This document shows, piece after piece, positions 7,170 to 24,093 of a stretch of 26,794 bases of DNA. Location: positions 1-26,794 of IMG/VR virus record IMGVR_UViG_3300047279_000056; one strand, given 5' to 3'. This DNA comes from a virus. Taxonomy: Duplodnaviria > Caudoviricetes. The number at the start of each line of letters is the position of its first letter. The stretch's first letter is position 1. Position numbers and translations under genes: made by a program. The notes below the pieces were generated by a model. The model saw only the letters and a list, made by a program, of their open reading frames with translations, was not told where the DNA came from and did not search any database.

Positions 7170-10100
7170 ATGACGAATATCACGAATAGCTTTGTAGCAG
7201 GAAAAATGAACAAGGATTTAGATGAACGTCTAATTCCTGATGGTACATATAGAGATGCTTTAAATATTGATGTTGATACCGACGAGGGATCAAACGTTGG
7301 ATCTGCAAGAAATTCTTTAGGCAACACACTAACGGGTGGTACAATCAGTGCAACAAACGGTCGAACTATCGGTGCAGTTAAATTCGAACCTAACAACCTA
7401 CTATATTGGCTAGTTGCATCTGATACGTTTGACGCTATCTTTGAATACAACGAGATTACTGACACCACACAAAGAGTACTTAAGTGTACTAAGGCAACTC
7501 CAACGACTGCTAGTACGCTTAATTTTAATCAGCAGTACCTTGTAACAGCGATAAATTACATAAACGGGTTCTTGTATTGGACGGATGGATTAAACCCTCC
7601 TAGAAGGGTTAATATCGCACGAGCTAAAGCATACACCGTCGATGATGCAAAAATTGCTGACGACTTACAGGTGATACTTGCTCCACCATTGAATCCTCCG
7701 ACGATAAGATTGTTTAATGATGGAACTCAAGCAAATAATATATCTGAGAAATTCCTATCGTTTGCTACTAGGTATAAATACCTAGATGGTCAGTACAGTG
7801 CGTTATCTCCATTATCAGCCATAGCATTCACTCCAAAAACATATGAACTAGATTATCAGGCAGGGAATAACAAAGCAATGGTTAATAAATATAACTCAGT
7901 TAAGTTTACTTTCTCTACTGGGTCTGTAAATGTGACTGATATTCAGTTGGTTATGTATGACACTAGAAGTTTAAATATTAGTGTTGTAGAAACCTTTAAC
8001 AAAGTAAAACTAGCACTTATAGATAATGTTTATTACTCTAGCTTTACTTTTTCAAATAATAAGACTTACACTATACTTACTTCAGATCAGATAACTAGAA
8101 CATTTGATAACGTTCCATTACTAGCAGAGGCACAAGACTTTGTTGGTAATAGATTAATGTATGGCAACTACACTCAGTTTTATAATATAGCTGACACTAA
8201 CAAGAACAACATAAAGATAGATTTATCATTAAACTATATTAGTACAGATATAACAAATGGTACACCAACCCAAACGTGGAGGTCAGACAGAGATTACGAA
8301 GCAGCGATAGAGTATTTAGATAATTACGGAAGACATACAACAGCCTTAACCTCTGTAGGAAACACTACATATATACCTGCTATTCAATCTGACACAAGCA
8401 ACAGTTTATTATTAAACATAAAGAACAAGCCTCCGTATTGGGCTACTGGATATAGAGTACTAGTAAAGCAGAGTAAAAAAGATTATTATAATATTTTTCC
8501 AATTACTTATTATATTGATGGATTATATAGATATTTTTTAATAAATGAATCTGATCGAGATAAGTTTAAAGTTGGCGAGTATGTTATATTTAAATCAGAT
8601 AAAAGTGGAGTAACCCATTCAAATAAAAAGTATAAAATTTTAGAATTCGCAAACAAAGGGACTAGTTTTATAAGTGGTATAATTTCTATCTCAGGGTTAT
8701 ATTTTAAAATTAAAGTTGGCTCTGCGTTTGAATTAGATAATTCAGGCGAATACAATTACACTTGGACAGGAATAGGATTCGGGCGTGTATATACTAATAT
8801 AGGAGAAGATATATATCCTGCGCCACCTATAGGGGTGAATCCATTTGGTTTTATAGATAATCCTATTTATTATGGCTCAGGAGATGAATCAGCATTAACA
8901 CTTCAAAATAACAATATTCAATCATACATATATGCTGCTAGATTACAAGTAATTATTGATAGTATATCCACCTTTTATTATATATTTAATGGCACCGTCT
9001 ATCCATCAATAAACATATCATATGGTGTACCTATTCCTATAAATAGTAATGATGGATTACTATTTACAAATATTATAATAAATAATGGATTTAATATAGG
9101 AGATAGATGGACTATAATGTCTAGACTTGATGCTGATTTTACACAGCGTGCTGTAGCTATAGTACCAGGTCAAAATTGGTCTCCATCTACTCCTGAAGTA
9201 GATAGAGCAATAGAAGTAGGAGCAATAATTACGTTAAACGTAATTAAAGATACTTATAATTCAACACAGCAAGCTGGACCTCAAATATTTCCTCCATCAC
9301 CTGCTAGATATGCCAATATAGAGGAATGGTGGTATGAAACATTAGCGTATAATCAATTTATATATTATGATCAATCAGGGATAAATATAGGATCGCAAAA
9401 AGGAGATTGGAATACCGCTGGCATAGCATTTAATAGAGGTAAAAATTGGGCAATGACTGCTGGGACAGGAGGATCTAATTATGCTAATGCTATAGATACA
9501 GGAGGGTCTATATCAAGTGAAACACTAAAATACCCCGTTAGAATATTATTATATAGCTGCGTAGGACCAAATAATACAGAGCTAGACGATGAATATGAAG
9601 GAATAGGTAATAATGATCAAAGTGAAATAAACTTTTCATTTAGTATATCTCAATCAGACACTCCTACTATATGTGAAACAGTTGGTAAAGATAACTCATT
9701 AGATGTATATCACGAGGCTACAAAAACTTATTCAATAACGAACGGTTTTCATCAGACGACATGGAGATTTAAAGATTATACAGCACCATCTTACGCAAGT
9801 GGAAATACAAACTTAGGGCAATTAAATCCTAACGGGATTCAATCAGGGACAGACCAACAGCATTGGTTTGAAGTGGGAGATATAGTATACTTTAAATTAA
9901 ATGGGATAGCTACAAACATACCATACACTGTAACATATGTACCGAACGCATTTAATATTGTAATAGATAAACCATTTGTCGCTGGTCCTATAATAGCAGG
10001 CACAGTATCCTACAACGTAAATGATATAGACCAAACTAACTATGGTCTTGCAGGACAAGCTGTATTAAAGATAAATAACCCAGGCACAATTAATTCAACG

Positions 10101-11090
10101 TATAACGGATGGACATTTGGTAACGGATTAGAGTCAGACAGAATAAAGGATGACTTTAACGCTCCTGAATTAGATCTTTCACCTAGAGTAAATGCCTATA
10201 TAGAGGACTACAAGCAGATGGAAAGTCCGAACGCTATATGTTATAGTGGATCATACGGAGAATACACTAGCTTAAACAGATTGAATGAATTTAATCTATC
10301 AAATGCTAACTTTAAGTATCTTGATAGTGAGTTCGGATCTATCCAAAAATTATACGCTAGAGATACAGACCTAGTTGTATTTCAAGAGAACAAGGTATCG
10401 AAAGTACTATACGGCAAGAACTTAATGTTCGATGCAGCAGGAGGATCAACTGTAACCTCTATCCCTGAAGTGTTAGGCACGCAAATAGCATATCCTAGTG
10501 AGTGGGGAATTAGTAAAAACCCTGAGTCATTCGCTGAATGGGCTGGTGATGTTTATTTCACTGACGCTAGGAGAGGGTCAGTACTACAGATGAGAGGGTC
10601 AGTACTACAGACGAGCGAGGATCAAATAATCCCTATATCAGCAGAAGGAATGACTGACTACTTTAGAGATTTAATGAGAGACGCTCCTAATAGTCAGAAG
10701 CTCGGAGGGTTTGATCCTTACACTAGAAAGTACAATCTATCTGCCAATAACATCAGTGTAAGTAAATGTAACTTGACACTAAGTAGGAACTCTTTAACTG
10801 TCCCTAAGTTATCAGGTGGTGGCGCATTAGCAGAACTATTCACAATCATAACGGATTCGTCGTGGTCAATTTCGTTAGTAAACCTAGGGTTTGGCACTAG
10901 TTGGCTAACAGGATATACTACATCAGGATATGGCACACAAGACATAATAGGACTTGTAGCTGCCAATAATACGTCAGTAGTAAGAAGAGTTAAGGTGGTT
11001 GTTACATACTGCACTAGTTTAACGGCAGAGTTTATATTAACTCAAGCTAGAGGGTCAAAGGGAAATGTCTTTTTAATAGTTAGAACTTAA
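7170..11090 (+). CDS. Tail nozzle/muzzle (stabilization) protein, N-terminal part, ending in a BACON-like domain
   Basis: Starts 'NSFVAGKMNKDLDERLIPDGTYRDALNI' and contains 'GNRLMYGNY', 'GNGLESDRIKDDFN' and 'GISKNPESFA...YFTDARRG', as in crAss-like stabilization proteins. The last ~95 aa match the BACON pattern. Confidence 0.82.
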   Translation: MTNITNSFVAGKMNKDLDERLIPDGTYRDALNIDVDTDEGSNVGSARNSLGNTLTGGTISATNGRTIGAVKFEPNNLLYWLVASDTFDAIFEYNEITDTTQRVLKCTKATPTTASTLNFNQQYLVTAINYINGFLYWTDGLNPPRRVNIARAKAYTVDDAKIADDLQVILAPPLNPPTIRLFNDGTQANNISEKFLSFATRYKYLDGQYSALSPLSAIAFTPKTYELDYQAGNNKAMVNKYNSVKFTFSTGSVNVTDIQLVMYDTRSLNISVVETFNKVKLALIDNVYYSSFTFSNNKTYTILTSDQITRTFDNVPLLAEAQDFVGNRLMYGNYTQFYNIADTNKNNIKIDLSLNYISTDITNGTPTQTWRSDRDYEAAIEYLDNYGRHTTALTSVGNTTYIPAIQSDTSNSLLLNIKNKPPYWATGYRVLVKQSKKDYYNIFPITYYIDGLYRYFLINESDRDKFKVGEYVIFKSDKSGVTHSNKKYKILEFANKGTSFISGIISISGLYFKIKVGSAFELDNSGEYNYTWTGIGFGRVYTNIGEDIYPAPPIGVNPFGFIDNPIYYGSGDESALTLQNNNIQSYIYAARLQVIIDSISTFYYIFNGTVYPSINISYGVPIPINSNDGLLFTNIIINNGFNIGDRWTIMSRLDADFTQRAVAIVPGQNWSPSTPEVDRAIEVGAIITLNVIKDTYNSTQQAGPQIFPPSPARYANIEEWWYETLAYNQFIYYDQSGINIGSQKGDWNTAGIAFNRGKNWAMTAGTGGSNYANAIDTGGSISSETLKYPVRILLYSCVGPNNTELDDEYEGIGNNDQSEINFSFSISQSDTPTICETVGKDNSLDVYHEATKTYSITNGFHQTTWRFKDYTAPSYASGNTNLGQLNPNGIQSGTDQQHWFEVGDIVYFKLNGIATNIPYTVTYVPNAFNIVIDKPFVAGPIIAGTVSYNVNDIDQTNYGLAGQAVLKINNPGTINSTYNGWTFGNGLESDRIKDDFNAPELDLSPRVNAYIEDYKQMESPNAICYSGSYGEYTSLNRLNEFNLSNANFKYLDSEFGSIQKLYARDTDLVVFQENKVSKVLYGKNLMFDAAGGSTVTSIPEVLGTQIAYPSEWGISKNPESFAEWAGDVYFTDARRGSVLQMRGSVLQTSEDQIIPISAEGMTDYFRDLMRDAPNSQKLGGFDPYTRKYNLSANNISVSKCNLTLSRNSLTVPKLSGGGALAELFTIITDSSWSISLVNLGFGTSWLTGYTTSGYGTQDIIGLVAANNTSVVRRVKVVVTYCTSLTAEFILTQARGSKGNVFLIVRT
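10571..10611 (+). repeat. In-frame tandem duplication, period 21 nt
   Basis: GAGAGGGTCAGTACTACAGA at 10571-10590 and 10592-10611, giving RGSVLQM-RGSVLQT. Confidence 0.95.
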
Positions 11091-11097
11091 TATACAT

Positions 11098-12939
11098 ATG
11101 AAGACGAACCAACGATATAAGATAGGAACGGACACTCCTTACGAAATAGACAACATAGAGATCGATACATCTTCAGAGATTTCGCTATTCGATTCAGAGA
11201 CTGGAGAAGGAGGGATTGGGTATATCCCTGCTGACGGAGACACAGTCTATGTAAGTTCAGGTGTATTAAACTCTGACTCTGATGTAAAGGACTTAACTCC
11301 ATCTTTGAACAATAATCTATACTACCTAGTGTCAGATCAATTATACGACGAGACACAGAAGGATACTATTATATCTTTAGCTACAGTAATATCATTGACA
11401 TTAACTACATACTTGCAAGACGATGTTCTTGATAATTTACTAGATGATGTTGACGATGAGTTAGTCGGAACATCTGTCGGAGCAGCGAGTAACAGTAGAT
11501 ATGTAGGGTCATTTGTGTTTTCAAATCCTACTGATATGCCGTACTTATATCTTGTGTGGGATCATACAGACAATATGGGTGCAGGGACGGCATCTTATAC
11601 AGGAGATGCAGCAACTAAATATATAGATATAGATTTTGGTTCAGATATAGGTAATACTGGAATAGATTATAACATCACAGGACTTACAGCTCCGTCAAGA
11701 TTTACGATGGAATGGAATGGCAATGTTTTGGCTGACACTGGATATGTAGGACTTAACTCACAGGCTAACTACGATAACTTAATTGCAGCAGGAGTGGATA
11801 CTAGCGATATAAATCTAACGGCACCTTATGATGGGCTTGTTGATAATGGCGTTGGTTCAATATTATTTAATAAATTCTCATCTGAATCATCTGCAGTACT
11901 GACTGTGTATTCACCATTAGATACTAATATTTGGGATTTAACTCAAGTAGCTGTTACCCTTACGTCGTTTTATTTGGACTCAGCAGAGGGGACTCTAGCT
12001 AATGTTTGCTCTCAAGTGGCTGATGGATTATTTTATCACGACGGATCAGGACTAGTGCCTGTAATAGGCGATAGAATCTATAGTGCAGCTGATGGTTCTG
12101 CTACATTTGACGGAACAAATACATATCACTTAATCAGTGATGTATTACAAGTAGTCCCTCCAGTTTCGGGTGGATTATTTGTCGGAGTAGATGTAAATGG
12201 ACTGTGCTATACTAGTGGTGAATGTGACTGTGCAGAGATTGCTGTACCAACAGTAACTCAGTCTGCCATTGAGATAGTTCAAGGCAAGAGTGTAAACTTA
12301 AGATTCGAAGCATCTAACAACCCTACGTCTTGGACTGTGACTACTGCTTGTAATGAGTACACATTAAACGGAGGAACTAACGGAAGCATATTCTCTATAA
12401 CTACGTGTGCTGGAGTTGTTAAAAATGTAACGATAAATATACAGACAGATACTCCTGTTTATTCTACAACATTGCCAACACTGTCATTCGGAGACGGAAC
12501 AATAACTTTAGTCGGTCCATACATTCAAAGTGTTCTACCGCAAGGATTAAACTTCAACTCTTCATCAGGGATCCTATCAGGAACTCCATCTGAGGCGTGT
12601 GAGTATACTATAAATGTAACGGCTACAAATTGTTTTGGAGATAGTTTAGATGTAGATGTAAATATAAGTGTAGACTCAGGGATACAGTTAACTCCATTCG
12701 CTATCGATGTAGAAAACTCAAGTGCTGATGGAACTACAGCTTGTGCTATAACAGCAGTATACAGTTTATTATATCATAACGGAATTGCAGCACTGCCTAC
12801 TTTGAATGATAAAATATTTACAGATTGGAAAGCAACCGAGCTATTTATGGGAGGAAGTAGATGGTATAATATCGATGGATCTACGGAATCTGTAAAAATA
12901 TGTGAAACGGGCAAGATATGTGATGTTCACACTTGCTAA
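11098..12939 (+). CDS. Nozzle-associated appendage protein (He_PIG-like Ig domain, two Cys-containing repeats)
   Basis: 613 aa, acidic and T/S/G-rich. Contains the Ig motif 'LPQGLNFNSSSGILSGTP...YTINVTATN' and two YH[DN]G...P...D.I[YF] repeats. Confidence 0.7.
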   Translation: MKTNQRYKIGTDTPYEIDNIEIDTSSEISLFDSETGEGGIGYIPADGDTVYVSSGVLNSDSDVKDLTPSLNNNLYYLVSDQLYDETQKDTIISLATVISLTLTTYLQDDVLDNLLDDVDDELVGTSVGAASNSRYVGSFVFSNPTDMPYLYLVWDHTDNMGAGTASYTGDAATKYIDIDFGSDIGNTGIDYNITGLTAPSRFTMEWNGNVLADTGYVGLNSQANYDNLIAAGVDTSDINLTAPYDGLVDNGVGSILFNKFSSESSAVLTVYSPLDTNIWDLTQVAVTLTSFYLDSAEGTLANVCSQVADGLFYHDGSGLVPVIGDRIYSAADGSATFDGTNTYHLISDVLQVVPPVSGGLFVGVDVNGLCYTSGECDCAEIAVPTVTQSAIEIVQGKSVNLRFEASNNPTSWTVTTACNEYTLNGGTNGSIFSITTCAGVVKNVTINIQTDTPVYSTTLPTLSFGDGTITLVGPYIQSVLPQGLNFNSSSGILSGTPSEACEYTINVTATNCFGDSLDVDVNISVDSGIQLTPFAIDVENSSADGTTACAITAVYSLLYHNGIAALPTLNDKIFTDWKATELFMGGSRWYNIDGSTESVKICETGKICDVHTC

Positions 12940-12942
12940 AAT

Positions 12943-12963
12943 TATAACTATCTTTGCATTATG
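12943..12963 (+). promoter_or_regulatory. Promoter/start element, repeat copy 1 (TATCTTTG four nt before ATG)
   Basis: TATAACTATCTTTGCATTATG, 19/21 identical to 13447-13467. Confidence 0.7.
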
Positions 12964-13446
12964 GGAAAAATAGATGACTACGCAACAGGGACGGCAGGGT
13001 TAACTGATAAACTGTTAGCATCAGATGGTGGTACTGGCGTTACTAAGAACTTGCTTGTTAGTGATTTAATTGATGGACTTACAACATACTTAGAGACAGA
13101 TATTTCATCTGCTGAATTATTAGCAATATTCACCACTCCAAAAACAATCTTAGCAGCACCAGGAGCAGGGATGTATTATAAATACAGAGCCATATTAGAA
13201 TATGATTACGGTACAGCTATTTACACTACATCAGGAGGTGGTGAATTATATTTAAGTCAGGGTAACGCAGATTGTTATTTTCCAAATAACGCAATAAAAC
13301 AAATATTCAACACTGCATCAGAGGGTACATTCTACGGTTTTGCAGCTATGAATACAGCTTTAATATTAACATCGCAATCAAACCCAACATTAGGAGATGG
13401 TACTTGTAAATTAAAGTTATGGTACACTATTGAAACGTTTGGGTAA
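12961..13446 (+). CDS. Short fibre/spike protein with N-terminal attachment domain
   Basis: N-terminus 'MGKIDDYATG...DKLLASDGGTGVTKNLLVSDL' resembles fibre anchoring domains. It is followed by a compact beta domain ('PKTILAAPGAG...GDGTCKLKLWY'). Confidence 0.6.
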   Translation: MGKIDDYATGTAGLTDKLLASDGGTGVTKNLLVSDLIDGLTTYLETDISSAELLAIFTTPKTILAAPGAGMYYKYRAILEYDYGTAIYTTSGGGELYLSQGNADCYFPNNAIKQIFNTASEGTFYGFAAMNTALILTSQSNPTLGDGTCKLKLWYTIETFG

Positions 13447-13467
13447 TATAACTATTTTTACATTATG
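13447..13467 (+). repeat. Promoter/start element, repeat copy 2
   Basis: TATAACTATTTTTACATTATG, starting immediately after the stop of the 161-aa gene. Confidence 0.75.
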
Positions 13468-14226
13468 CCATTTACAGGAGAGACAATTACATATTCAGAT
13501 TATTCTAAAGGGTGGACCTCATTTTGGTCCTACCTTCCTGATTGGATGATCGGTATGAATAGCTCGTTTTATACTTGGAGGAATGGTAATCTATACAAGC
13601 ATAACACCAACGCTACACGGAATCGGTTTTATTTTGATGACGTTCCTAACCAAGACGGAGGTGGTATAAACTACGAATCAAACATAACAACCGTATTTAA
13701 TTTCGATCCTGCTGCAATGAAGATGTTCAAGACGCTATCGCTAGATAGTACGCACGCTTGGAAGTCAGAACTTACTACAGACATATCTACAGGATATATG
13801 GAGTCATCGTACTTTCAAGAGAAAGAAGGGACGTGGTTTGCATATATAAGACGAGTTGACGGAACTATCGACACCAAGGCAATATCTACACAAGGAATAG
13901 GTGCCCTTGGTAGTTATAGTGCGCTCGTTCTTACGTTCACCTTCGATATAGGAACAGGCATATCTACAGGTGACAAGGTGTATAAAGTGTCAGGTGGAGC
14001 GTTGGTGTTGTTTGGAGAAGTAGCGTCACACACATCTAAAACTATAACACTAGTTTCTACAGCGGTAACTCCAGTAGCTGCCGATGTTATTGTTTATGTT
14101 AAAAACTCACAGGCTGAATCTTTTGGCGCAAGAGGGTACTATATGGATTGCAAGTTGACTACAGAAGAAACAGCTCAGGTTGAGATATTTACAGCTACAT
14201 CAAATATATTTAAATCAAATCCATAA
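13465..14226 (+). CDS. Nozzle/muzzle C-terminal portion encoded as a separate ORF
   Basis: 'TITYSDYSKGWTSFWSYLP...FYTWRNGNLYKHN...VFN...KMFKTLSL...EKEGTWFAYI...QGIG' is the segment I recognise as the C-terminus of single-chain stabilization proteins. Confidence 0.72.
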   Translation: MPFTGETITYSDYSKGWTSFWSYLPDWMIGMNSSFYTWRNGNLYKHNTNATRNRFYFDDVPNQDGGGINYESNITTVFNFDPAAMKMFKTLSLDSTHAWKSELTTDISTGYMESSYFQEKEGTWFAYIRRVDGTIDTKAISTQGIGALGSYSALVLTFTFDIGTGISTGDKVYKVSGGALVLFGEVASHTSKTITLVSTAVTPVAADVIVYVKNSQAESFGARGYYMDCKLTTEETAQVEIFTATSNIFKSNP

Positions 14227-14627
14227 TGGAAGTTAGAATGTTAAATACCGACGATTACGATCAATCGTTAAAGCCGTGGTGGGAATCTTGGGGGTGGTCA
14301 GCTCCTAGTAAGGATTTCCTACCTGAAGATGGAATAGGCGGACTAATGGTGTCGTATGAGGGGGTAGATATATGCGCTGGGTTTATTTATTTCACTAACT
14401 CGAAGGCTGCATGGATAGAGTTCGTTATATCTAATAAAGAATATAAGGGCGACAATAGAAAAGAAGCTTTGCAATTACTGATAAATTGTTTGTCAAGTGT
14501 TGCAGAAGATAAAAAATTTAAGTACATTTACACATCTTTAAAGAGCAACTCGTTGATTAAGATATACAGTGACTGCGGATTTACTAAGGGTGATAGTAAT
14601 TGTCAAGAAATGATTAAAGTATTATGA
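14226..14627 (+). CDS. GNAT-fold acetyltransferase-like protein
   Basis: 133 aa with a GNAT-like pattern (AGFIY, WIEFVISNKEYKG..R, LIKIYSDCGF), located between the nozzle and ejection genes. TAATG overlap with the upstream gene. Confidence 0.7.
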   Translation: MEVRMLNTDDYDQSLKPWWESWGWSAPSKDFLPEDGIGGLMVSYEGVDICAGFIYFTNSKAAWIEFVISNKEYKGDNRKEALQLLINCLSSVAEDKKFKYIYTSLKSNSLIKIYSDCGFTKGDSNCQEMIKVL

Positions 14628-15103
14628 AGATAAATTCGTTCTTATTAATAGATGACTTACTAGATAACGTTGACGCACATATTGCTGACGTTATGTCTAA
14701 TGATTTTATAGATGTTAACGATGGTGTCAATACTTTCAAGAACATACAAGATAGGAACACAGATGTTGTAAGCGAATCTATTTTACTTCTATTACAAGAT
14801 TTCGATGTAGCTTATAATTTTGTAAGAAAATCTCCCGAAGGTCAAGAGGAACCGAACTTCATTCACTCTGACGAGATGATGGGAGATATAACTTGTTTGT
14901 TATACTTAAACGATGGTGCTCCGAGTGAAGATGGGACAACAATATATAATGATGACGATAGTGAAGCGGTAGTATTTAAGAGTAAATTGAATCGTTTGGT
15001 AGTGTTTGATTCAAAATTAAAACACAGCAGAAATATTTTTAATAACTTTGGAAGCGAAGATAAGTCAAGACTTGTACAAGTTATCTTTTTAAATAAGAAA
15101 TAA
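14624..15103 (+). CDS. 2OG-Fe(II) oxygenase
   Basis: HxD (IHSD), LLYLN, GTT, NRLVVFD...H and distal R (SRLVQV) give a complete HxD...H...R set. Confidence 0.85.
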   Translation: MKINSFLLIDDLLDNVDAHIADVMSNDFIDVNDGVNTFKNIQDRNTDVVSESILLLLQDFDVAYNFVRKSPEGQEEPNFIHSDEMMGDITCLLYLNDGAPSEDGTTIYNDDDSEAVVFKSKLNRLVVFDSKLKHSRNIFNNFGSEDKSRLVQVIFLNKK

Positions 15104-15742
15104 ATGGCAGCAATAACAGGAGCGGTAGTAGCTTTAGCAGGTATGGGTCTTAGTATAGGTCAAGCAGTAAAGGCAGACAAAGATAAGAAAAAAGCCGAAC
15201 AAGCAGCAACCGTAGCAGCAAACAAAATGAAGAGCATTAAGGAGACTAATGCATTTAGTTCAGTCCAAGTACCTACTCTTGGATTCGATTTAGCTCAACA
15301 AGGAATAGATAGAAGTGCAATGGCAGCTCTATCGTCAGCAGAAGGTGCAGGTGCAGAAGGTGTTCTAGGTGCTTCAGGTAAAATAATGCAAGGAGTAAAA
15401 GATGCTGAGTTAGAGTTATCAGCTCAAGCTGGAGATGTTAAACTTCGTAGAGATTTAGCAGAAGCTCAGGCAGGATCTGATATTGAAGCAAGAAGAGCAG
15501 ACAGGGAGAATACAATGTATTCAGCTCAATTACAAGGAGCTCAAGCAGATATAGCTCAACAACAAGCGAACAAAAATGCTGCTATTCAATCAGCAGTAGG
15601 GTCGGCAGGAAATGCATTAAGCTCAGGAGCCGACGCTTTAGCTTTATATAAAGGCAAAAAAGGAGAAAAAATGGGAGAAGATTTACTTGATAAATCTCCA
15701 TATGCTAGTGGGTCTAGATATACAACTGGCGCATCTTATTAA
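15104..15742 (+). CDS. Putative ejection/internal virion protein (T7 gp14-like position)
   Basis: Hydrophobic Gly/Ala N-terminal helix and Ala/Gln-rich helical body; first of three genes of increasing size. Confidence 0.65.
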   Translation: MAAITGAVVALAGMGLSIGQAVKADKDKKKAEQAATVAANKMKSIKETNAFSSVQVPTLGFDLAQQGIDRSAMAALSSAEGAGAEGVLGASGKIMQGVKDAELELSAQAGDVKLRRDLAEAQAGSDIEARRADRENTMYSAQLQGAQADIAQQQANKNAAIQSAVGSAGNALSSGADALALYKGKKGEKMGEDLLDKSPYASGSRYTTGASY

Positions 15743-15758
15743 TAAAACTTAAATAATT

Positions 15759-17219
15759 ATGCCAACAGAATACGCAGGATATATACCTACAGCAAATCAG
15801 ATTGATTGGGAGTCATTAGGAGCTGGACTGTCTAGTAAAATAAAAGCTATTAGTGACGACAGAACAGCTAGAAAGGCTGAGTTGGATAAGTCTGCATTCG
15901 ATCTATCTTCAGATATTGCTAACACTGAAATGGGCGAAAGTGAGACCTTTAATAATATGCTTATAAAGGGCGTAGATAAGGGTAGGTCTCAGATTAAGAA
16001 ATGGAATGATATGCTAAAGGCAGGGCAACTTTCACCTGTTGATTACAAATTAAAGCTAGAAAGTCTTAAAGATAATTGGGGAATACTAGCTAACTCAGCT
16101 AAGTCATTCGACGCAAGATATCAATCAACTATCGCAAGACAACAAGAAGACGAGAACGGTAGAATTGCAGGGTCAACGCTAGAACTAGAGCTAGGATCTA
16201 GATATGGTCAGTTAGCTGAACTAAATGGTAAGGCTCTAGAAATAGGTGACGACGGTTCTGTGCATATGAGTAAGACTAATCCTGTCACAGGAGAGGTTGA
16301 AAATCTTATAAACTTAAGAGATATTAATCGTCCTGAGAACATACTAGACAACAGAGTTATCGTTACTGATAACGTCGCATCTCTAACTGAGAACTGGAAT
16401 CCTATAGAGTTGTTTAAGGACTTAGGAAGAGGAGGAAGTACATCAATCGAGAGTATGCGTAACCATCCTGAATTTGCTGATATGAAGGCTAAGGTTGCAC
16501 AGTCTGTAGCACCTAACAGTAATCCTAGAGCACAGTTAAGTGTACTTACTGACAATGCAGGGATGACTCCATTATTTTATTATAATGAGTCCGACAGAAA
16601 GAAAGTACTTGACGTAGCAATAAAGGACCAACAAGAGATAAATAGAATTGCAGGCAAGTCATCAGAACTATCAGCCGATCAGATTAAAGAGATTGAGTTC
16701 GGATTGGTTGAGATGAGAACTACCAATGGCAGGATCGATCCCGTACTAAGGGCAGACCAACAGAAGGCATCTCAAGACTATGTAATGAGCGAGACTGAAA
16801 TGCAGATGGGTCAAAAGATAGCAGGTCAGGCTAAACAACAGTGGGCTTCAGGTGGTGGATCGGGAAGCGGTGGCTCAGGTAATAGTACTGACCCTAATGA
16901 TTTTTCTTTATATCAACAGATTACAGAAAGTTGGGGTCAACCAGGTGGTGCTGCTGCATTAACTGCTGCATCAGGTGGTAAATTTGTATTTGCAGTTAGA
17001 CCTAACGGAGGATACGAGGTATACCCAGCAGGTGCAAAAGAAGGAACTAAGCCAACAATTATAAAAGTACAAAAAGACATGGCTCCGTATTTCTTTGGAT
17101 CAGGTACTGGTGCAAAAGGAACTACTGGAACATATCCTGAGTATGAGCGTCAGGCTAAGTTATATTGGAGTGCAAAAGGAGGAAAAGGAAATACTACTAC
17201 ACCAAAAAAATTCAATTAA
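15759..17219 (+). CDS. Putative ejection/internal virion protein (gp15-like position)
   Basis: 486 aa, helical, with a Gly/Ser linker before a small C-terminal domain; assigned by gene position. Confidence 0.55.
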   Translation: MPTEYAGYIPTANQIDWESLGAGLSSKIKAISDDRTARKAELDKSAFDLSSDIANTEMGESETFNNMLIKGVDKGRSQIKKWNDMLKAGQLSPVDYKLKLESLKDNWGILANSAKSFDARYQSTIARQQEDENGRIAGSTLELELGSRYGQLAELNGKALEIGDDGSVHMSKTNPVTGEVENLINLRDINRPENILDNRVIVTDNVASLTENWNPIELFKDLGRGGSTSIESMRNHPEFADMKAKVAQSVAPNSNPRAQLSVLTDNAGMTPLFYYNESDRKKVLDVAIKDQQEINRIAGKSSELSADQIKEIEFGLVEMRTTNGRIDPVLRADQQKASQDYVMSETEMQMGQKIAGQAKQQWASGGGSGSGGSGNSTDPNDFSLYQQITESWGQPGGAAALTAASGGKFVFAVRPNGGYEVYPAGAKEGTKPTIIKVQKDMAPYFFGSGTGAKGTTGTYPEYERQAKLYWSAKGGKGNTTTPKKFN

Positions 17220-17220
17220 A

Positions 17221-17561
17221 ATGAACGACAAAGCTAAAGAATTATATTCGTACTTAAAGAGTCAGAACATGACTGACTTAGATGAGAATACATTTATTAA
17301 TAAATATTCCGATCCATCTAAATCAGCAGAGATACACTCATATCTTAAGAGTCAGAACATGACTGACTTAGATGCCTCATCGTTTCATAGCTCATACTTT
17401 GGTGGTGTAAAAAAAAAAGATTCTACTCCTCCAAAAAAGACGGATTCTTTCTTCAGTTCGGCTACAAAGATGGTCGATGCTTCGTTGGCTACATCAAAGC
17501 CAAAGACGGCTCAAAAGCCTTTGGAATCGTCATCAAAAGTAGACGACTCGAAGTACTATAA
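17221..17561 (+). CDS. Predicted -1 frameshift product (113 aa) of the giant ejection gene
   Basis: A10 run at 17409-17418. The -1 frame reads RFYSSKKDGFFLQFGYKDGRCFVGYIKAKDGSKAFGIVIKSRRLEVL* and has no start codon of its own. Confidence 0.55.
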
Positions 17562-20500
17562 GGTTTCAGGAAACGAGAAGGCTACCTATAAAAAAAGTAA
17601 TGGAGAATGGACTGTAGATGTAAATTCTACAGGTAAATTCCAGCCATTAACAAAAGGAGATGTAAATGCTAGAGTTAAAAATCTAGAGCAAAATGCAGTC
17701 CTTGATGAAGACATTACTTATTACAAGAATAAGAGTATTGGTAAGATATTAGGAGCTAATACCGAAGACCAAAGTGCGTCAGAATTATTAAGAGGAAAGG
17801 TATTTACAGGATTCCCAGGAAAGGAAGAAAATAAATACAGAATAATTGATAATAAGTGGCAGTATAGTAGACCATCAGAAGGTGGTTATACTAAATGGGC
17901 TGACGTAACAAACGATCAATCTATAAAGGCACTAAGTACTCAGTTTAATGAACTAGGAAAACTAGATGTATCTAAAAATATAGACTACATATCTGAATTC
18001 AAGGCAAAGAATGTCTTAGGGGAAAAAGCTACAGAAGAAGAATTAACAACTAAGCAGACTTACTATAAAAATATAGAGAAGCAAAAAATACTTAGAGCTT
18101 CAGGATATGATGTCCCTTTGAATGGAGATTTGAAAGATCCTAAAACTGTAGCAGCATTTAAATTGTTTGATGCTAAAATGGAGGCTAAGTCTGCTTCTAA
18201 TAATAAAGAAAGTCAGTTAAACGATAAGATCGATCTAGTTGTAAACAATACTCTTATCAATAACGATGAGGAAAACGTTGTAGCTAAATTAAGAGCTAAG
18301 TTTGGTAAGGACGGATTTATATTCGACGAGTCAGGAATTGGTGATGCTATAACTGTATCTTACAGTATTGACGGAGTTCAAGAAACTGACCCTATATCTA
18401 TCGATCTTCAATCGTTATATAGCGATGAAGAAGAAATGAATAAGCTTAAATCCTATATGAAGACTAAGCACGTAGGTGATTTTGAGAGAAACATAATTGG
18501 AGCTGACAATAGCGATACACCACTTACTACTGAGGAAAAAGTAAAACACTATAAGGACCTAACTAAATTAATGGCTAAAAATCCATTAAAGTATGGTAAG
18601 GAATTAATCAGTGAAGATGGTGGAGAAATTGATAATATTATATCTGAAGGATATTCAGACATCAAGGCTAAGTATATTGGACTAGAGGATGACGCTAAAA
18701 AAATAGAGGAAAAGGTAGCTCAATATAATGCGAACCCTACTAAAGAGTTAGAGCTATCTATAAATAACGATGTAAATAGATTAAAACAAAAGGAGTATCA
18801 GTTAAAGAGAGATGCTAATGATTTAAAAGGAATAGAATCTAACTACGCGAAGGCGGTTGGATCCTATGTAAATAGTGAATCAAAGAGTGGAAACTTCTTA
18901 GGAGGACTGAGTGCTTCATTTGTAAAAGGACTAACATCAATACCAAAAGCATTATTAAATGTATCGGCAGATGTATTACCGTTAGCTGTAGATAATTATG
19001 GATTAAATTCTGTTGAGTACGAAAAATTAAAACAAGAAGGACTTAGCGATGATGATATTTATAATAAGGTATCATCTAGCTTGAAAAGATCTGTAGTTGA
19101 TGACGTTCAAAAAGGAATTGTAAATATCGGATCACTTGGAACTACTACTGAAGAGTACTTAGGGTCGGAAGACAGGGGTATGGTATCACAGGCTGTTAAT
19201 GCGCTTGCTGAATCTATTGGTGCTAATATTTCAGGAGGTGGAAATCCAATGCTACAAAAGTTAGCGTTCTTCTCACAGTCATACAATGATATGGAATCAC
19301 AAATGAGTGGAACCGAGTTTGATGATATGAGTGCTATAGAAAAGAAAGGTATATCTATACTATATGGTATTGGAATAGGACAACTAGAAAAACTAGGGTT
19401 TGATGTTTCTTCAGGGATAGGTACAAATAAGATCGTTCAGAAATTTATAAACTACACAGTAGGTAAGACATTAAAAGATTTACCTAAGAACGCGTCAATT
19501 CATTTAATTGAGGAGACTATCTCTAAGAATATAAAAGCAAATTTAATATCTAACGGAATCAAGGTTGTTGCTGGTGGATTATCTGAGGCTACCCCTGAAT
19601 TTGTTCAATCAATCAGTGAGGTCGGTCTAAAGAATGTAGTAAATGCTATTCACGATAAAGAGTACTTCCAAGACGTGCCTGATTTAACTACAGCTGAAGG
19701 GTTAAAAGAAGCTCTATCGTTAGCTAGTCATGACGCTATAATAGGTGGTCTAGGTGGATCTATAATGGGTTCTTATAGTACGTACCAATCTAACAAAACA
19801 ACATCAACAGCTGATAAGGACTTTGAGTTAATGCGCGCGTCGTTAATAGACCCTGCATTATTGAAGTCCGTAAAGATGGATACAGCTCAGAGACTAAGAA
19901 AAGGAGAACTAACGAAAGAAGAGGCTCAGTCTGAAATTAGAAATATAAATAAGTCTGTCAGTATTTTAAATAAGATACCTACCGATATATCTAACAGAGG
20001 TGCTAGAGTATCTTATGAGTTACTTTCTGAAAAGGAAACGCTAGAGCAACAGATATTAAATAAAGATAAAAATTTAGTAGTAAAGCAGCAGGCTAGAATT
20101 GATGAGATTAATGGTCAGTTAGAAAATATAACTGAGACTATTAAAAACATGCCTGAGCCTATAGAAGTAGAAGCTACTCCTATTGAAAAAACAGAGGTAA
20201 TTACTACCCCTATTGATCCTACTAAAGTAGAAGGAGAAAAAGTAGTCCCAGTTGGGAAACGATTATTTAACGATCCAAACATAGAAACAAAAGCAATATC
20301 TAAAGCATATAAAGAATCTAAAGGCATTAAAACCAGTGAAGGTTCTAATATAGAGTCTGTAGATATTCCTAATGCTATGAAGATAGCTGATGCTTTCGAT
20401 GCACTAGAAGATACCCCTAATGATCCGATAGTTCAGAAGGCTTATAGTGATATGGCTACTGAGACAGCTGATCAACATAAATCTATAGTTGACGCTGGTT

Positions 20501-23500
20501 ATGATGTAGAAATATGGGAAGGAGATGGAGAGCCATATGCTAATGCTGAGGCAATGATATCTGACTTGAGAGATAATAAACATATGTATATCTACTCTAC
20601 TGAGGTAGGTTTTGGAGATACTCCTATAACTAATGAACAAAGAAATCAAAATAAATTACTTCAAGATTCAGGATATAAAGACAAGAACGGTAAGACATTA
20701 TTATATAATGACGTATTTAGATTTGTTCACGACTTTTTTGGTCACTCAGAGAGGGGTAATGGATTTGGAGCTATAGGTGAAGAAAATGCTTGGGATGTAC
20801 ATTCTAGAATGTACTCACCGTTAGCAAAGAGAGCTATGACTACAGAGACGAGAGGTCAAAATAGTTGGGTTAACTTCGGTCCTCAAATGCGTAACGCAGA
20901 TGGTACGTTAGTTAAGAAAGGAGATCAAGGATATAAAGAAGCTAAGGATAGAGAGTTTGCACCACAAAAAATGGGACTACTTCCTGAAGAGTTTTCACAA
21001 TCATTAGATGACGTGAAGGTTGATAAAGAGGTAGTACAATTGTCTGAATCAATAAGTAACAACGATGATATTCAAGAGGTCTTAAAAGATGCCACTAACT
21101 TAAAAAGAGCATCAGATTTTCTTAAAAATATAGAAGATAGTTTAGATCAATTTGGTAAAGAAACGCTTGGAATGAATTTACCTGTGGCGGTAGCTAAAGT
21201 TGTAGTTAAAACAATTAGAACATTAGTAGATGCAGGAGTATCATTAGAACAAGCGATTAAACAAGCATCCAAAGAACATAACGTATCAGAAGAAGATATT
21301 TATGATACGTTAAATGTAAAGCCTAGTAAAAAATCTGCATCAATCAAAGAAGCTATAACGAAAGCAAAGGAGAACGATATATCGGACGCTGCCATACGTA
21401 AGTACTTAAAAAACGAAGGATATACCGATAAGCAGGCTACCGATGAGATCAATAAGTTCAACATTAAGTCTGAAGATATTTGGACCAAGGGCGAGGAAGG
21501 AATAATAAACTCTCTAAAGTACTTCAAGAAGAAGTTATTCTCAGCTCGCGCGTTCTTGCCTATATCGGTTAGAAATGCTATCGAGAATAAGAACGCTACG
21601 ATCGCATTCCATAAGAACATCATCGCTAGGAATGTTGCTGACTTCAATCGTCTGTACAGAAAGTACGACGGGGACAAGGAACAACTATTAAAAGACTTTG
21701 ATCAGTACATTCGTGGTGAGAGATATAAAAATAATGAGGACAGTACAAAGAGCGATCGAGAGATAGAACTTCCGACCGACTTTAAGATTCTTGCTAACTC
21801 TATGAGAAATCAGATTGACGGACTGTCTAGACAGTTAATTGCTAGTGGTGCCGTTGATGTGGACAAAATTGAGACTATAAAGGCTAACCTTGGAAAGTAC
21901 TTGACTCGTTCATATGAGATGTACGATAATAAGAACTGGAAGAAAGATGTAAAAGATAATGTCAGACAGGCTGCCATTAATTATTTAAGAGTTCAGTACA
22001 AGAGCTATGCTGAGAATGTTTCAGAAAGAAACGATCAACCGTTCGAGGATGTGTTAAACGCGAAGGTAGAGCAAGAGATGGCTAACATATTCCCAATCGA
22101 GGCTAAGGGTAACTTTAAGAATAAATCGAAAGAAGGATCGAAGGATTTATCTATACTTAAATCTAAGAAGGAAATACCTACTGAGATACGAGCACTGATG
22201 GGTGAATATGAGGATCCAACTCTTAACTATGCTGCGACCGTTACAAAGTTAGCAGAACTTACATTGAATCACAAGTTCTTGTCTGATATTAAAGAGCTAG
22301 GGATGGGCAAATACTTCTTTGAGAAGGATGATATGCGTGCCCCTAAAGATTTTCACGTAGAGATTGCGCCAACAGGAAGTAATACAATGAGTCCACTTAA
22401 CGGACTGATGACCACTAAAGAGATCGCTGATGCATTCATGAAGGAGGCTAACGGTCTTAATGACTTTATGAAGGTTGTGATGGGTATTCAGGGTGCGATT
22501 AGATACTCGAAGACTATCCTATCTGTAGCAACACATGCCAAAAACTTAGTGGGTAACTTTGGTTTTATGTGGACCAACCTCCACTTAAAGCCTAATGAAA
22601 TTGGTAGAGCTATGAGGATTATTCATGGTGACTTATGGAACAAGTCAACCGACGTAAGAAAGGCTAAGATGGATGAGTACATCAAGGCTGGAGTTGTAAA
22701 ACAGTCAGCAGGTCTTGGTGAGATAATGGATATGTTTAAGGATGCAAACTTTGACATCTCTATGGCTTCAAGATTATCTAAGAAGAAAGTAGGAACGCTA
22801 GGTAAACTGAAGAGAGTAATATTCCAAGGTAAGAAGTTCATCGAGGACTCATACCAAGCGGAGGATGACTTCTTTAAGATTATCGCATACGAGCACGAGA
22901 TGAATAGATACTCAGATGCTATGTATGATAAAAAACGGGAGGATTTGACGGAGGACGAGTACAAGAAAGTACAAGAGAAGGTATCTGAGATCGTTAAAAA
23001 TATCTATCCAACATACGATAGAATTCCTGAGCTGATCAAGATGGTACGTAGAACTCCTCTTATTGGTAACTTCGTATCGTTTACTGCAGAGTCATACCGT
23101 ACTGCATGGAATACGTTGGCTCTAGCTACTGAAGAAATGAAGGACGAGAGTACGAGAGCTATTGGTGCCAAGAGAATTATCGGTGCATCGACATATGTTT
23201 CTGCAAAATCTGCGTTACTAATATATATGAGTAATAAGGCAGGAGCTGGATTTACAGGACTTCTAGGATATCTATTTGACGACGAAGAAGAGAAGAAGAG
23301 AGATGCTGACATAAAGTCATTCCTTCCTCCTTGGTCTAGGAACTCTGATGTATTATTACTAGATGTTGGAGATGGTAAGATACAGTACATCGACTTTAGT
23401 GCTACCGATCCACACGGATCAATGAAGAAGGTGCTTAACGCATTCTTTAGCGGAAAGACTGGGATAGATGGATTTATCGATGGAGCTATCGCTGTGTTCG

Positions 23501-24093
23501 AGCCGTTCATCGGAAAGGACATGGCTGTTGAGGCTGCCCTTGCGTTAGATAGTAACAGGAATAAGTACGGTGATACGATATATAATCCTGAGGATACTGA
23601 AGCAAAGAAGACGAGTAAGATAATGGGATACCTTTATGATTTAGTAAAGCCTGGGACTGCTGCATCTGTCGAGAGAATTGTAGAGTCTGAGAGTAAGGGA
23701 GCTGAGATCGCTGCTAATCTAACAGGATTTAGAATCAGTGAGATAGATGTTACGAAGCAGTTTGGATTTGGAATGTCAGAACTTGCTGACAGAATGAAGA
23801 ACGCTAACAAGATCTACAACTCTGCATACTACAACGACAAGGCATCTGAAGCTGATAAGAAGCAGGCTTACAAGGAAGCGAACGCTCGATCGAAAGAGAT
23901 AATGAAGGAGATGTCTGACCTGTACGACTCAGCTGAGAGATTAGGCAGTGATCCTAAGTTATTGATAGAGTCAATGTCTAGCGCACAGAATCAGTTGTCT
24001 GCTAAAGAGATAAAGGAGATTCAGTCTAGAGAGTACAGCGACCTTAAGTTGAAAGAAGATAAAGACAAGAAGAAGGTAGAAGCTTACTGGTAA
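17221..24093 (+). CDS. Giant multidomain ejection protein (~2290 aa; gp16-like/polyvalent)
   Basis: The start is probably ATG 17221, right after the upstream TAA. It has N-terminal repeats, a PG-binding-like motif, Gly-rich hydrophobic helices, an HDFFGH zincin-like domain and a C-terminal region with 'YQAEDDFFK...PTYDRIP...PLIGNFVSF' typical of large internal virion proteins. Confidence 0.75.
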   Translation: MNDKAKELYSYLKSQNMTDLDENTFINKYSDPSKSAEIHSYLKSQNMTDLDASSFHSSYFGGVKKKDSTPPKKTDSFFSSATKMVDASLATSKPKTAQKPLESSSKVDDSKYYKVSGNEKATYKKSNGEWTVDVNSTGKFQPLTKGDVNARVKNLEQNAVLDEDITYYKNKSIGKILGANTEDQSASELLRGKVFTGFPGKEENKYRIIDNKWQYSRPSEGGYTKWADVTNDQSIKALSTQFNELGKLDVSKNIDYISEFKAKNVLGEKATEEELTTKQTYYKNIEKQKILRASGYDVPLNGDLKDPKTVAAFKLFDAKMEAKSASNNKESQLNDKIDLVVNNTLINNDEENVVAKLRAKFGKDGFIFDESGIGDAITVSYSIDGVQETDPISIDLQSLYSDEEEMNKLKSYMKTKHVGDFERNIIGADNSDTPLTTEEKVKHYKDLTKLMAKNPLKYGKELISEDGGEIDNIISEGYSDIKAKYIGLEDDAKKIEEKVAQYNANPTKELELSINNDVNRLKQKEYQLKRDANDLKGIESNYAKAVGSYVNSESKSGNFLGGLSASFVKGLTSIPKALLNVSADVLPLAVDNYGLNSVEYEKLKQEGLSDDDIYNKVSSSLKRSVVDDVQKGIVNIGSLGTTTEEYLGSEDRGMVSQAVNALAESIGANISGGGNPMLQKLAFFSQSYNDMESQMSGTEFDDMSAIEKKGISILYGIGIGQLEKLGFDVSSGIGTNKIVQKFINYTVGKTLKDLPKNASIHLIEETISKNIKANLISNGIKVVAGGLSEATPEFVQSISEVGLKNVVNAIHDKEYFQDVPDLTTAEGLKEALSLASHDAIIGGLGGSIMGSYSTYQSNKTTSTADKDFELMRASLIDPALLKSVKMDTAQRLRKGELTKEEAQSEIRNINKSVSILNKIPTDISNRGARVSYELLSEKETLEQQILNKDKNLVVKQQARIDEINGQLENITETIKNMPEPIEVEATPIEKTEVITTPIDPTKVEGEKVVPVGKRLFNDPNIETKAISKAYKESKGIKTSEGSNIESVDIPNAMKIADAFDALEDTPNDPIVQKAYSDMATETADQHKSIVDAGYDVEIWEGDGEPYANAEAMISDLRDNKHMYIYSTEVGFGDTPITNEQRNQNKLLQDSGYKDKNGKTLLYNDVFRFVHDFFGHSERGNGFGAIGEENAWDVHSRMYSPLAKRAMTTETRGQNSWVNFGPQMRNADGTLVKKGDQGYKEAKDREFAPQKMGLLPEEFSQSLDDVKVDKEVVQLSESISNNDDIQEVLKDATNLKRASDFLKNIEDSLDQFGKETLGMNLPVAVAKVVVKTIRTLVDAGVSLEQAIKQASKEHNVSEEDIYDTLNVKPSKKSASIKEAITKAKENDISDAAIRKYLKNEGYTDKQATDEINKFNIKSEDIWTKGEEGIINSLKYFKKKLFSARAFLPISVRNAIENKNATIAFHKNIIARNVADFNRLYRKYDGDKEQLLKDFDQYIRGERYKNNEDSTKSDREIELPTDFKILANSMRNQIDGLSRQLIASGAVDVDKIETIKANLGKYLTRSYEMYDNKNWKKDVKDNVRQAAINYLRVQYKSYAENVSERNDQPFEDVLNAKVEQEMANIFPIEAKGNFKNKSKEGSKDLSILKSKKEIPTEIRALMGEYEDPTLNYAATVTKLAELTLNHKFLSDIKELGMGKYFFEKDDMRAPKDFHVEIAPTGSNTMSPLNGLMTTKEIADAFMKEANGLNDFMKVVMGIQGAIRYSKTILSVATHAKNLVGNFGFMWTNLHLKPNEIGRAMRIIHGDLWNKSTDVRKAKMDEYIKAGVVKQSAGLGEIMDMFKDANFDISMASRLSKKKVGTLGKLKRVIFQGKKFIEDSYQAEDDFFKIIAYEHEMNRYSDAMYDKKREDLTEDEYKKVQEKVSEIVKNIYPTYDRIPELIKMVRRTPLIGNFVSFTAESYRTAWNTLALATEEMKDESTRAIGAKRIIGASTYVSAKSALLIYMSNKAGAGFTGLLGYLFDDEEEKKRDADIKSFLPPWSRNSDVLLLDVGDGKIQYIDFSATDPHGSMKKVLNAFFSGKTGIDGFIDGAIAVFEPFIGKDMAVEAALALDSNRNKYGDTIYNPEDTEAKKTSKIMGYLYDLVKPGTAASVERIVESESKGAEIAANLTGFRISEIDVTKQFGFGMSELADRMKNANKIYNSAYYNDKASEADKKQAYKEANARSKEIMKEMSDLYDSAERLGSDPKLLIESMSSAQNQLSAKEIKEIQSREYSDLKLKEDKDKKKVEAYW
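17257..17374 (+). repeat. 28-nt exact direct repeat, period 90 nt
   Basis: AAGAGTCAGAACATGACTGACTTAGATG at 17257-17284 and 17347-17374 (SYLKSQNMTDLD twice). Confidence 0.95.

Follow-up and report, generated by a model that had tools for sequence, protein, structure and literature searches.

A conserved A10 run near the start of a giant podophage virion gene and a predicted 113-residue second product read from the -1 frame

The locus considered here raises the question of why the gene for a 2290-residue virion protein should carry, close to its start, a homopolymer run at which the reading frame could change, and of what the product of such a change might do. In the window, by which is meant the whole 26,794-nt stretch of DNA that was analyzed, this A10 is the sole A/T run longer than eight, and the giant gene, beginning with ATG at 17221, reads GTA AAA AAA AAA GAT across it. 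An earlier sequence-only reading had placed the run behind a shared N-terminus and after 63 codons; the run and its reading are as it described, except that GTA is itself codon 63. The features under discussion are collected in Table 1.

Table 1. Features of the ejection-gene region and of the muzzle genes upstream of it (positions are those of the window)
Feature	Position	Strand	Basis
crAss-type muzzle in pieces (1306 aa, 613 aa, 253 aa)	7170..14226	+	PF25731 crAss_MUZ, PF05345, PF25729 crAss_MUZ_C
Putative first ejection protein, 212 aa, Gly/Ala hydrophobic N-terminus	15104..15742	+	PHROG 13764 virion structural protein; syntenic with phi18:3 gp120 (virion MS annotation); role from synteny
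Putative second ejection protein, 486 aa, predicted docking partner of the head	15759..17219	+	ORF; syntenic in 127/165 sequences; phi18:3 gp121 (virion MS annotation)
K-K-F-N motif at the C-terminus of the 486-aa protein, candidate ligand of the head	17205..17216	+	motif co-occurrence
Giant virion protein, 2290 aa, zero frame; S/T/P linker across the overlap	17221..24093	+	PHROG 22602 virion structural protein; PHROG 3170
Head of 62 aa common to both frames, with SYLKSQNMTDLD duplicated (17248-17283 and 17338-17373); predicted to fold as four helices; swappable module	17221..17406	+	sequence; AlphaFold2 pLDDT 86.6; swaps
Candidate A10 slip site	17409..17418	+	sequence; A>=9 in 102/108 homologues, 93 exactly A10
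ORF of 47 codons in the -1 frame; predicted beta-meander of four strands, basic and aromatic, forming the tail of the predicted 113-aa product	17418..17561	+	sequence, AlphaFold2, selection tests

The window comes from a Bacteroidota podophage. Portal, capsid, ring and crAss-type muzzle genes were found in it by Pfam and PHROG searches, and the annotated relatives, namely Elemovirus, Maribacter phage Panino, the Pervagoviridae phi38:1 and Calle_1, and the Pachyviridae phi13:2, 18:3, 19:3, 46:3 and Gundel_1, have hosts among the Flavobacteriaceae; genome contigs yielded two loci, both from bins labelled Flavobacteriaceae. The tail genes are followed by three genes in series, of about 210, about 490 and more than 2000 codons, the phi18:3 counterparts of which (gp120, gp121 and gp123) have annotations based on mass spectrometry of virions. 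T7 (gp14/gp15/gp16), P22 (gp7/gp20/gp16) and crAss001 (cargo gp45/gp46) likewise have, behind the tail genes, a series of virion genes that increase in size, and crAss001 shares the crAss-type muzzle as well (PMC8954989, PMC10172136). Synteny with T7 and crAss001, together with the virion annotation, suggests that the three post-tail genes encode ejection proteins, and the giant has the properties expected of a podophage ejection protein, being virion-associated and the last and largest of three genes after the tail genes (synteny, phi18:3 annotation, PHROG 22602). These proteins would then enter the host envelope on infection. No sequence homology to the T7, P22 or crAss001 ejection proteins was found, and the 2290-aa giant has no Pfam or PDB sequence match. 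Family and sequence searches of the giant detected no toxin domain, toxin family or enzyme family, so that the earlier suggestion of a short product acting as an antidote to toxic cargo finds no support.

Several minor features of the region may be recorded here. Residues 1052-1222 of the giant (20374-20886) make up the PHROG 3170 region and carry an H-D-x-x-G-H motif, possibly part of a metal-binding or peptidase-like insert, as suggested by resemblance and with no family match. In two relatives (L065:12715-19573 and L066:13900-20611) the giant appears as two overlapping ORFs, one of about 1427 aa and a further long one, possibly reflecting a second frame break within it. The muzzle pieces correspond to an N-part (1306 aa), a part with an Ig-like He_PIG domain (613 aa) and a C-part (253 aa), and the genes inserted in the muzzle region vary widely in number and size among relatives. 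A 2OG-Fe(II) oxygenase-like gene (14624-15103; weak PF13640 match, below cut-off), missing from most relatives, lies between a conserved 133-aa gene and the ejection genes.

The A-run is conserved beyond what chance would give. Relatives were gathered through neighboring genes, independently of the run, and the giant was located in 127 of 165 sequences; with L105 (wrong gene) and L163 (split) left out and duplicates removed, 108 giant starts remained for counting. At least nine consecutive A's occur within the first 160 codons in 102 of them (93 A10, seven A9, one A11 and one A12), or in 85 of 91 when counted by sequence cluster, compared with 15 such runs in 1.5 Mb of neighboring control sequence. 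One of these carriers (L097) has a chance run and another (L083) a -1 ORF of only 10 codons; the other 100 have -1 ORFs of 14-54 codons, and the median across all 102 is 32 codons against a null median of 4. Both the run and the open, aromatic/Gly-patterned -1 frame that the sequence-only reading had proposed to look for in homologues are thus conserved. In the bodies of the giant genes AAA-AAA-AAA encodes just one of 126 KKK triplets, when about 33 would be expected from codon use. Pattern scans added 104 cassettes from viral contigs (six of 110 matches were dropped as chance) and 86 from metagenomes (30 of 116 were dropped, 29 lacking the upstream motif and one having A25), with run lengths from 9 to 13. 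None of 11 listed sequencing runs was an RNA data set carrying the sequence. No run-length indel was seen in contigs of four sequencing runs, although these are assemblies, in which slippage is not visible, and the best contig, which reads A10, possibly has the same source as the window. The 49-kb virion region of crassvirus phi14:2, the one genome of that kind inspected, has no A/T run longer than eight.

In the -1 frame, the codons behind the run (RFYSS...LEVL) stay open for 47 positions, to a TAA at 17559-17561, and before the run this frame contains a TAG at 17388, one ATA and no ATG, GTG or TTG. One added A would therefore give a protein of 113 aa, and the zero frame gives 2290 aa. The description in the earlier reading agrees with this, and 47 open -1 codons are met at only 0.8% of 9,900 random positions in giant genes. 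AlphaFold2, run on the -1 tail with a 41-sequence alignment, predicts four strands (residues 3-8, 11-18, 21-29 and 35-43) with a mean pLDDT of 78.7, in agreement with the beta-meander proposed before from sequence patterns. The three KDG turns then taken as its hallmark are present in the window, but their periodicity is lineage-specific, and the conserved core consists of aromatic-Gly-hydrophobic strands, which occur in two-, three- and four-strand forms among relatives. The tails have a median net charge of +6 and 0.6 acidic residues on average, and are rich in Y, F, W and R. Searches of the tail against Pfam, PHROG, the Atlas and fold collections gave nothing significant, with no Foldseek match at E<=0.001. 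The fold search returned generic sheets only, the best being Pur-alpha (Z 5.5, rmsd 3.2, 48 aligned), with pore and barrel sheets within 1 Z of it; a Z below 8 denotes a common arrangement. Six-frame scans of 19 loci, including cassette-less ones, revealed no free-standing tail gene, with profiles that missed some true divergent tails.

Which frame is under selection can be read from the substitutions. One Gly that the search pattern did not fix is present in every one of 104 -1 tails, with all four of its codons in use, and the zero-frame residue at the same place varies among E, V, D, A and G. In 18 close pairs, transitions that are silent only in the -1 frame number 47 per 1000 sites (24/510), those silent only in frame 0 number 13 (7/534) and those silent in neither 11 (6/543), and downstream control sequence reverses this order (9, 89 and 11 per 1000, respectively). 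Transversions (20, 10 and 3 per 1000, in the same order) leave some room for mild zero-frame constraint. These patterns show the -1 frame to be a genuine coding frame, held by purifying selection and having no start codon of its own, with the zero frame nearly free. This is the synonymous-site pattern that the sequence-only reading had anticipated when it described the zero frame as an unconstrained linker. RNA structure was considered as the source of the conservation and is rejected on the codon use of the invariant Gly and on fold tests. The +1 frame behind the run is likewise open (median 36-37 codons); this openness is most likely a by-product and no conserved +1 product is assumed, since 38% of shuffles match its length and its wobble position is the least variable.

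It could be argued that no functional product is made at all, the run being a mutable DNA tract or the codons of three lysines, and the -1 pattern arising incidentally from a Ser/Thr linker. Ser/Thr codons do read as hydrophobic residues in the -1 frame, run variants are on record (A8 in L172, A11 in L296, and A9 in five cultured genomes with a split giant), and proteins in which head and tail are joined in frame exist in databases. However, when the linker codons were shuffled 20,000 times the -1 frame stayed open in 9.8% and the motif arose in 0.5%, compared with 79 of 102 observed; silent changes track the -1 frame; and the head keeps the giant's frame in 188 of the 190 cassettes found by pattern. 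Selection on the -1 frame thus largely refutes this explanation, which is scarcely credible. The in-frame head-plus-tail proteins made up 25 of 27 matches in one search, by our own reading of them, and 15 of 17 in a profile search of 1.84 billion proteins, none of which was a free gene family; they come mostly from single short contigs that may be of either DNA or RNA origin, and are not counted as expression. The short product is, in our judgment, very probably made and useful.

How the -1 frame is reached is a separate matter. The sequence-only reading had noted both a slippery heptamer and a run of a length suited to transcription slippage, and both are indeed present: A_AAA_AAA occurs in every form of the run and A_AAA_AAG in a few. 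The ribosome could give the same short product if two tRNA-Lys slipped in tandem by -1 at A_AAA_AAA, or if it slid along the A-run, and the presence of the heptamer in all run and phase forms, the use of -1 as the shifted frame and the sliding of ribosomes on iterated AAA codons (PMC4363877) would all agree with this. However, the strong bacterial site A_AAA_AAG needs six A's, and nowhere in the unbiased set is there an A6-A7 site ahead of a conserved tail; in most cases the run stops at a codon boundary and is followed by G; and ribosome sliding required 11 A's in the purified E. coli (PURE) system (PMC4363877), one more than the modal run length of 10. Neither type of ribosomal stimulator is apparent. 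Downstream structure, predicted without pseudoknots and long-range elements, has a mean z of -0.27 over 83 loci with 6% below -2, the same as in controls, and SD-like words are found at 10 of the 83 loci, which is no enrichment. The run has lengths of 9-13 and occurs in all three codon phases (0, 1 and 2), and with A10 here and A9-A12 in homologues it has the nine or more A/T residues of programmed transcriptional slippage, nine being enough for efficient slippage by bacterial RNA polymerase, as in dnaX of Thermus thermophilus (PMC5009743). Since the run is kept by length over codon phase and has no ribosomal stimulator, slippage by the polymerase is the probable route, and the ribosomal one is unlikely, though it deserves serious consideration.

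The part common to both frames is the 62-aa head, in which the duplicated repeat seen earlier is present in two copies. The earlier claim of two products on one head is probably right. The heads belong to many unrelated families, most with an internal repeat (84 of 100), and are acidic (median charge -4); fold searches of the head gave nothing significant. They behave as exchangeable modules: among 41 pairs with close giant bodies the head differs in 23, in 17 of which the tail is still similar, and in eight pairs that were examined DNA homology restarts no more than about 25 bases from the run, and the swapped block extends back into the end of the upstream gene. What travels with the head is a short C-terminal motif of the upstream protein. 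With the head type of the window, [KT]F[ND] falls within the last eight upstream residues at six of six loci and at none of 208 others, and for three further head families the corresponding upstream ends are G-E-L-D (19/29 vs 2/185 others), G-G-x-x-R (18/19 vs 2/195) and [DN]-Y-[GST] (10/11 vs 1/203), all of these patterns having been selected after inspection of the same data. When both flanking protein bodies are unrelated, upstream ends are similar in 34% of the 723 pairs whose heads are very similar and in 0.5% of the 15,799 whose heads are dissimilar, the pairs not being independent of one another. The reversed arrangement also occurs, in which it is the head that carries repeats of a short motif and the upstream C-terminus that bears a mini-domain. 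Cultured phages fit too, Panino having a D-P-L-G upstream end with a KYPxY head, and phi38:1 and L004 having DEFGIP heads with the same C-terminal mini-domain.

Part of this co-occurrence can stem from linkage, since head and motif lie within about 50 nt of each other. The motifs, however, show silent codon variation and have variable flanks, and linkage would explain co-transfer but not the retention of four or five residues at the protein level. For this reason the head is likely to bind the C-terminus of the upstream 486-aa protein, the two being a predicted docking pair. Docking domains of PKS and NRPS systems are likewise matched modules, at the C-terminus of one protein and the N-terminus of the next, and are swapped together. 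They have no homology to the modules described here, which differ in comprising many unrelated head families in both orientations, with binding that is predicted. The head as a swappable module matched to the upstream C-terminus is new beyond the earlier reading, and its pairing with the upstream end suggests a testable explanation for the loading and ordering of ejection proteins.

From these elements the following account can be proposed, to which we give a probability of roughly 0.4 as a whole. RNA polymerase probably adds one A at the A10, so that a second, 113-residue product would be made, consisting of the shared head and a basic, aromatic four-strand beta-meander. This short protein would dock through its head onto the C-terminal end of the 486-aa protein as an extra subunit of the ejectosome and, once docked, would hold the ejection complex at a host membrane. 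The giant and the short form would use the same docking sites on the 486-aa protein in a ratio set by the slip rate, the short form bringing a basic, acid-poor, aromatic sheet to the place where the giant has 2200 residues of cargo. For the part of this account in which ejection is followed by binding of the meander to lipid, and not to DNA or a component of the capsid, the odds seem to us slightly less than even; the strands, of 5-9 residues, are short for spanning a bilayer, and clean alternation is seen in only one strand of the window (FLQFGY). In a bolder version, a widespread group of aquatic Bacteroidota podophages would build its ejectosome by a docking code, in which interchangeable pairs of head and upstream end chain the second ejection protein to the giant, slippage of the polymerase would make a fourth subunit that has the same head, and the meander would oligomerize in the host membrane as a beta-type alternative to the helical T7 channel, possibly with 2, 3 or 4 strands per subunit and one barrel size; we regard this version as speculative and decidedly unlikely.

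A membrane-binding ejectosome subunit is favored over three other functions. The short protein could serve as a loading adaptor, remaining in the procapsid or the producing cell and causing the ejection proteins to be packaged, its head gripping the 486-aa end and its meander adding strands to portal, scaffold or capsid, or sitting on the inner membrane. The head swaps and the pairing of head with upstream motif fit this equally well, short strands suit beta-addition better than membrane spanning, and the order of the cargo has been proposed to follow from contacts between cargo proteins (PMC10172136). Strand number, on the other hand, varies from 2 to 4 despite there being one conserved structural module, and the strong, acid-free positive charge would suggest a polyanion over a defined protein groove, so that we hold a loading adaptor to be rather unlikely. 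The meander might instead bind DNA, acting as a basic and aromatic sheet of the PC4/Pur-alpha kind that tethers the genome end to the chain of ejection proteins. The median charge of +6 and the richness in Y/F/W/R would agree with DNA binding, and Pur-alpha heads the weak fold list, but at a score typical of a common arrangement and with pore and barrel sheets close behind; in addition, the PC4-type helix is missing, and the cross-strand Gly and the two hydrophobic faces of the two-strand form would fit DNA poorly. A DNA tether is accordingly quite improbable.

In the remaining function the tail would be a cationic beta-hairpin, active either at lysis, by weakening the outer membrane, or against superinfection, with the acidic head serving as start and neutralizer. 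An acidic head (median -4) joined through a KKKR junction to a cationic aromatic tail resembles beta-hairpin antimicrobial peptides, and no spanin is named for Calle in the available source text. Such a role would leave unexplained why the tail is restricted to this head, as is seen in the profile matches, and it is a long shot. Compared with all three, the membrane-binding subunit is the reading that we carry forward.

Some aspects of the proposed system have precedents. The lambda G/GT pair, to which the sequence-only reading compared it, is likewise a programmed -1 event in a phage morphogenesis gene that gives two proteins on one N-terminus. In that case, however, the longer product is the one that arises from the shift, which is ribosomal and lies close to the 3' end of a short gene ahead of a tape-measure gene; the pair serves long tails and neither product is cargo. 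Here the shift is at codon 63-66 of a gene in a podophage module with muzzle genes and would give the shorter product, and the comparison holds for the shared N-terminus but is otherwise loose. T. thermophilus dnaX (tau/gamma; PMC5009743) is closer in having one gene with an intact long ORF and a homopolymer run (9 nt) at which transcription slips, and a short form that has the same N-terminus and joins the same machine, as is predicted here. It differs in that both shifted frames stop nearby, whereas in the phages the -1 frame encodes a conserved domain of 14-54 residues, the gene is a phage virion gene and slippage is predicted. In tssM1 of Citrobacter rodentium and tssM3 of Yersinia pseudotuberculosis a poly-A run leads to two length variants of a subunit of an envelope machine, with slippage of 15-25% and, in tssM1, a variant ratio that matters for function (PMC4256274). 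These are bacterial T6SS genes, slippage is rare among tssM genes and the short form is a truncation (PMC4256274), in contrast to the phage group, where the run is near-universal and slippage would furnish the short form with a new, overprinted domain. Known ejection channels are helical, unlike the beta-meander predicted here, and the available text of a review of ejection proteins does not mention frameshifting (PMC8954989, PMC10172136 for the channels; PMC8954989 for the review).

The class of slippage mechanism is therefore already known. No report of the site, the product or the head/tail pairing was found in the open-access literature; supplements and subscription papers, among them the original proteomics study of Cellulophaga phages, may bear on the point. 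The case would be one of homopolymer slippage that is both conserved and productive in a phage virion gene, and the same open-access literature yielded no report of another. It would add a predicted, so far unannotated gene to Pachyviridae, Pervagoviridae, Elemovirus and hundreds of environmental genomes, and cultured hosts and phages are available in phi38:1, Calle_1, Gundel_1 and elemoE.

The slip cassette also accounts for a giant gene that is split from its head in five deposited genomes. Among the cultured genomes four have A10 and an intact gene, and five, those of phi19:3, phi46:3, phi13:2, phi18:3 and Panino (L166:12250, L167:11313, L168:11268, L291:5507 and L163:31719), carry A9 as deposited, with the head annotated as a gene of its own or missed and the giant starting at an internal codon. 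Since A9 lacks one base of the usual context, these sequences are likely homopolymer miscalls; if A9 is real, slippage would be essential in those phages. In the A8 and A11 loci mentioned above (L172 and L296) the head reads straight into the beta-meander and the giant falls out of frame, due to either a variant or an assembly error.

The short protein is dispensable in some lineages, since some relatives are without a working cassette and several of these keep both the head and the upstream C-terminal motif. In a quick marker tree a working cassette is missing from 8 of 84 rows, in at least five separate places, and about 7% of relatives are without it. Possible stages of decay may be seen in L121:13248-13560, where a tail-like -1 frame is kept and the run is broken, in L083:13159-13480, where A10 is kept with only the 10 open codons noted above, and in L055:14144-14257, where the tail is open but atypical. 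Finally, L097, L099 and L101 have near-identical 133-aa marker genes and only L099 has the cassette; L097 and L101 have a different giant start that lacks the typical head and upstream motif, which points to replacement of the whole module.
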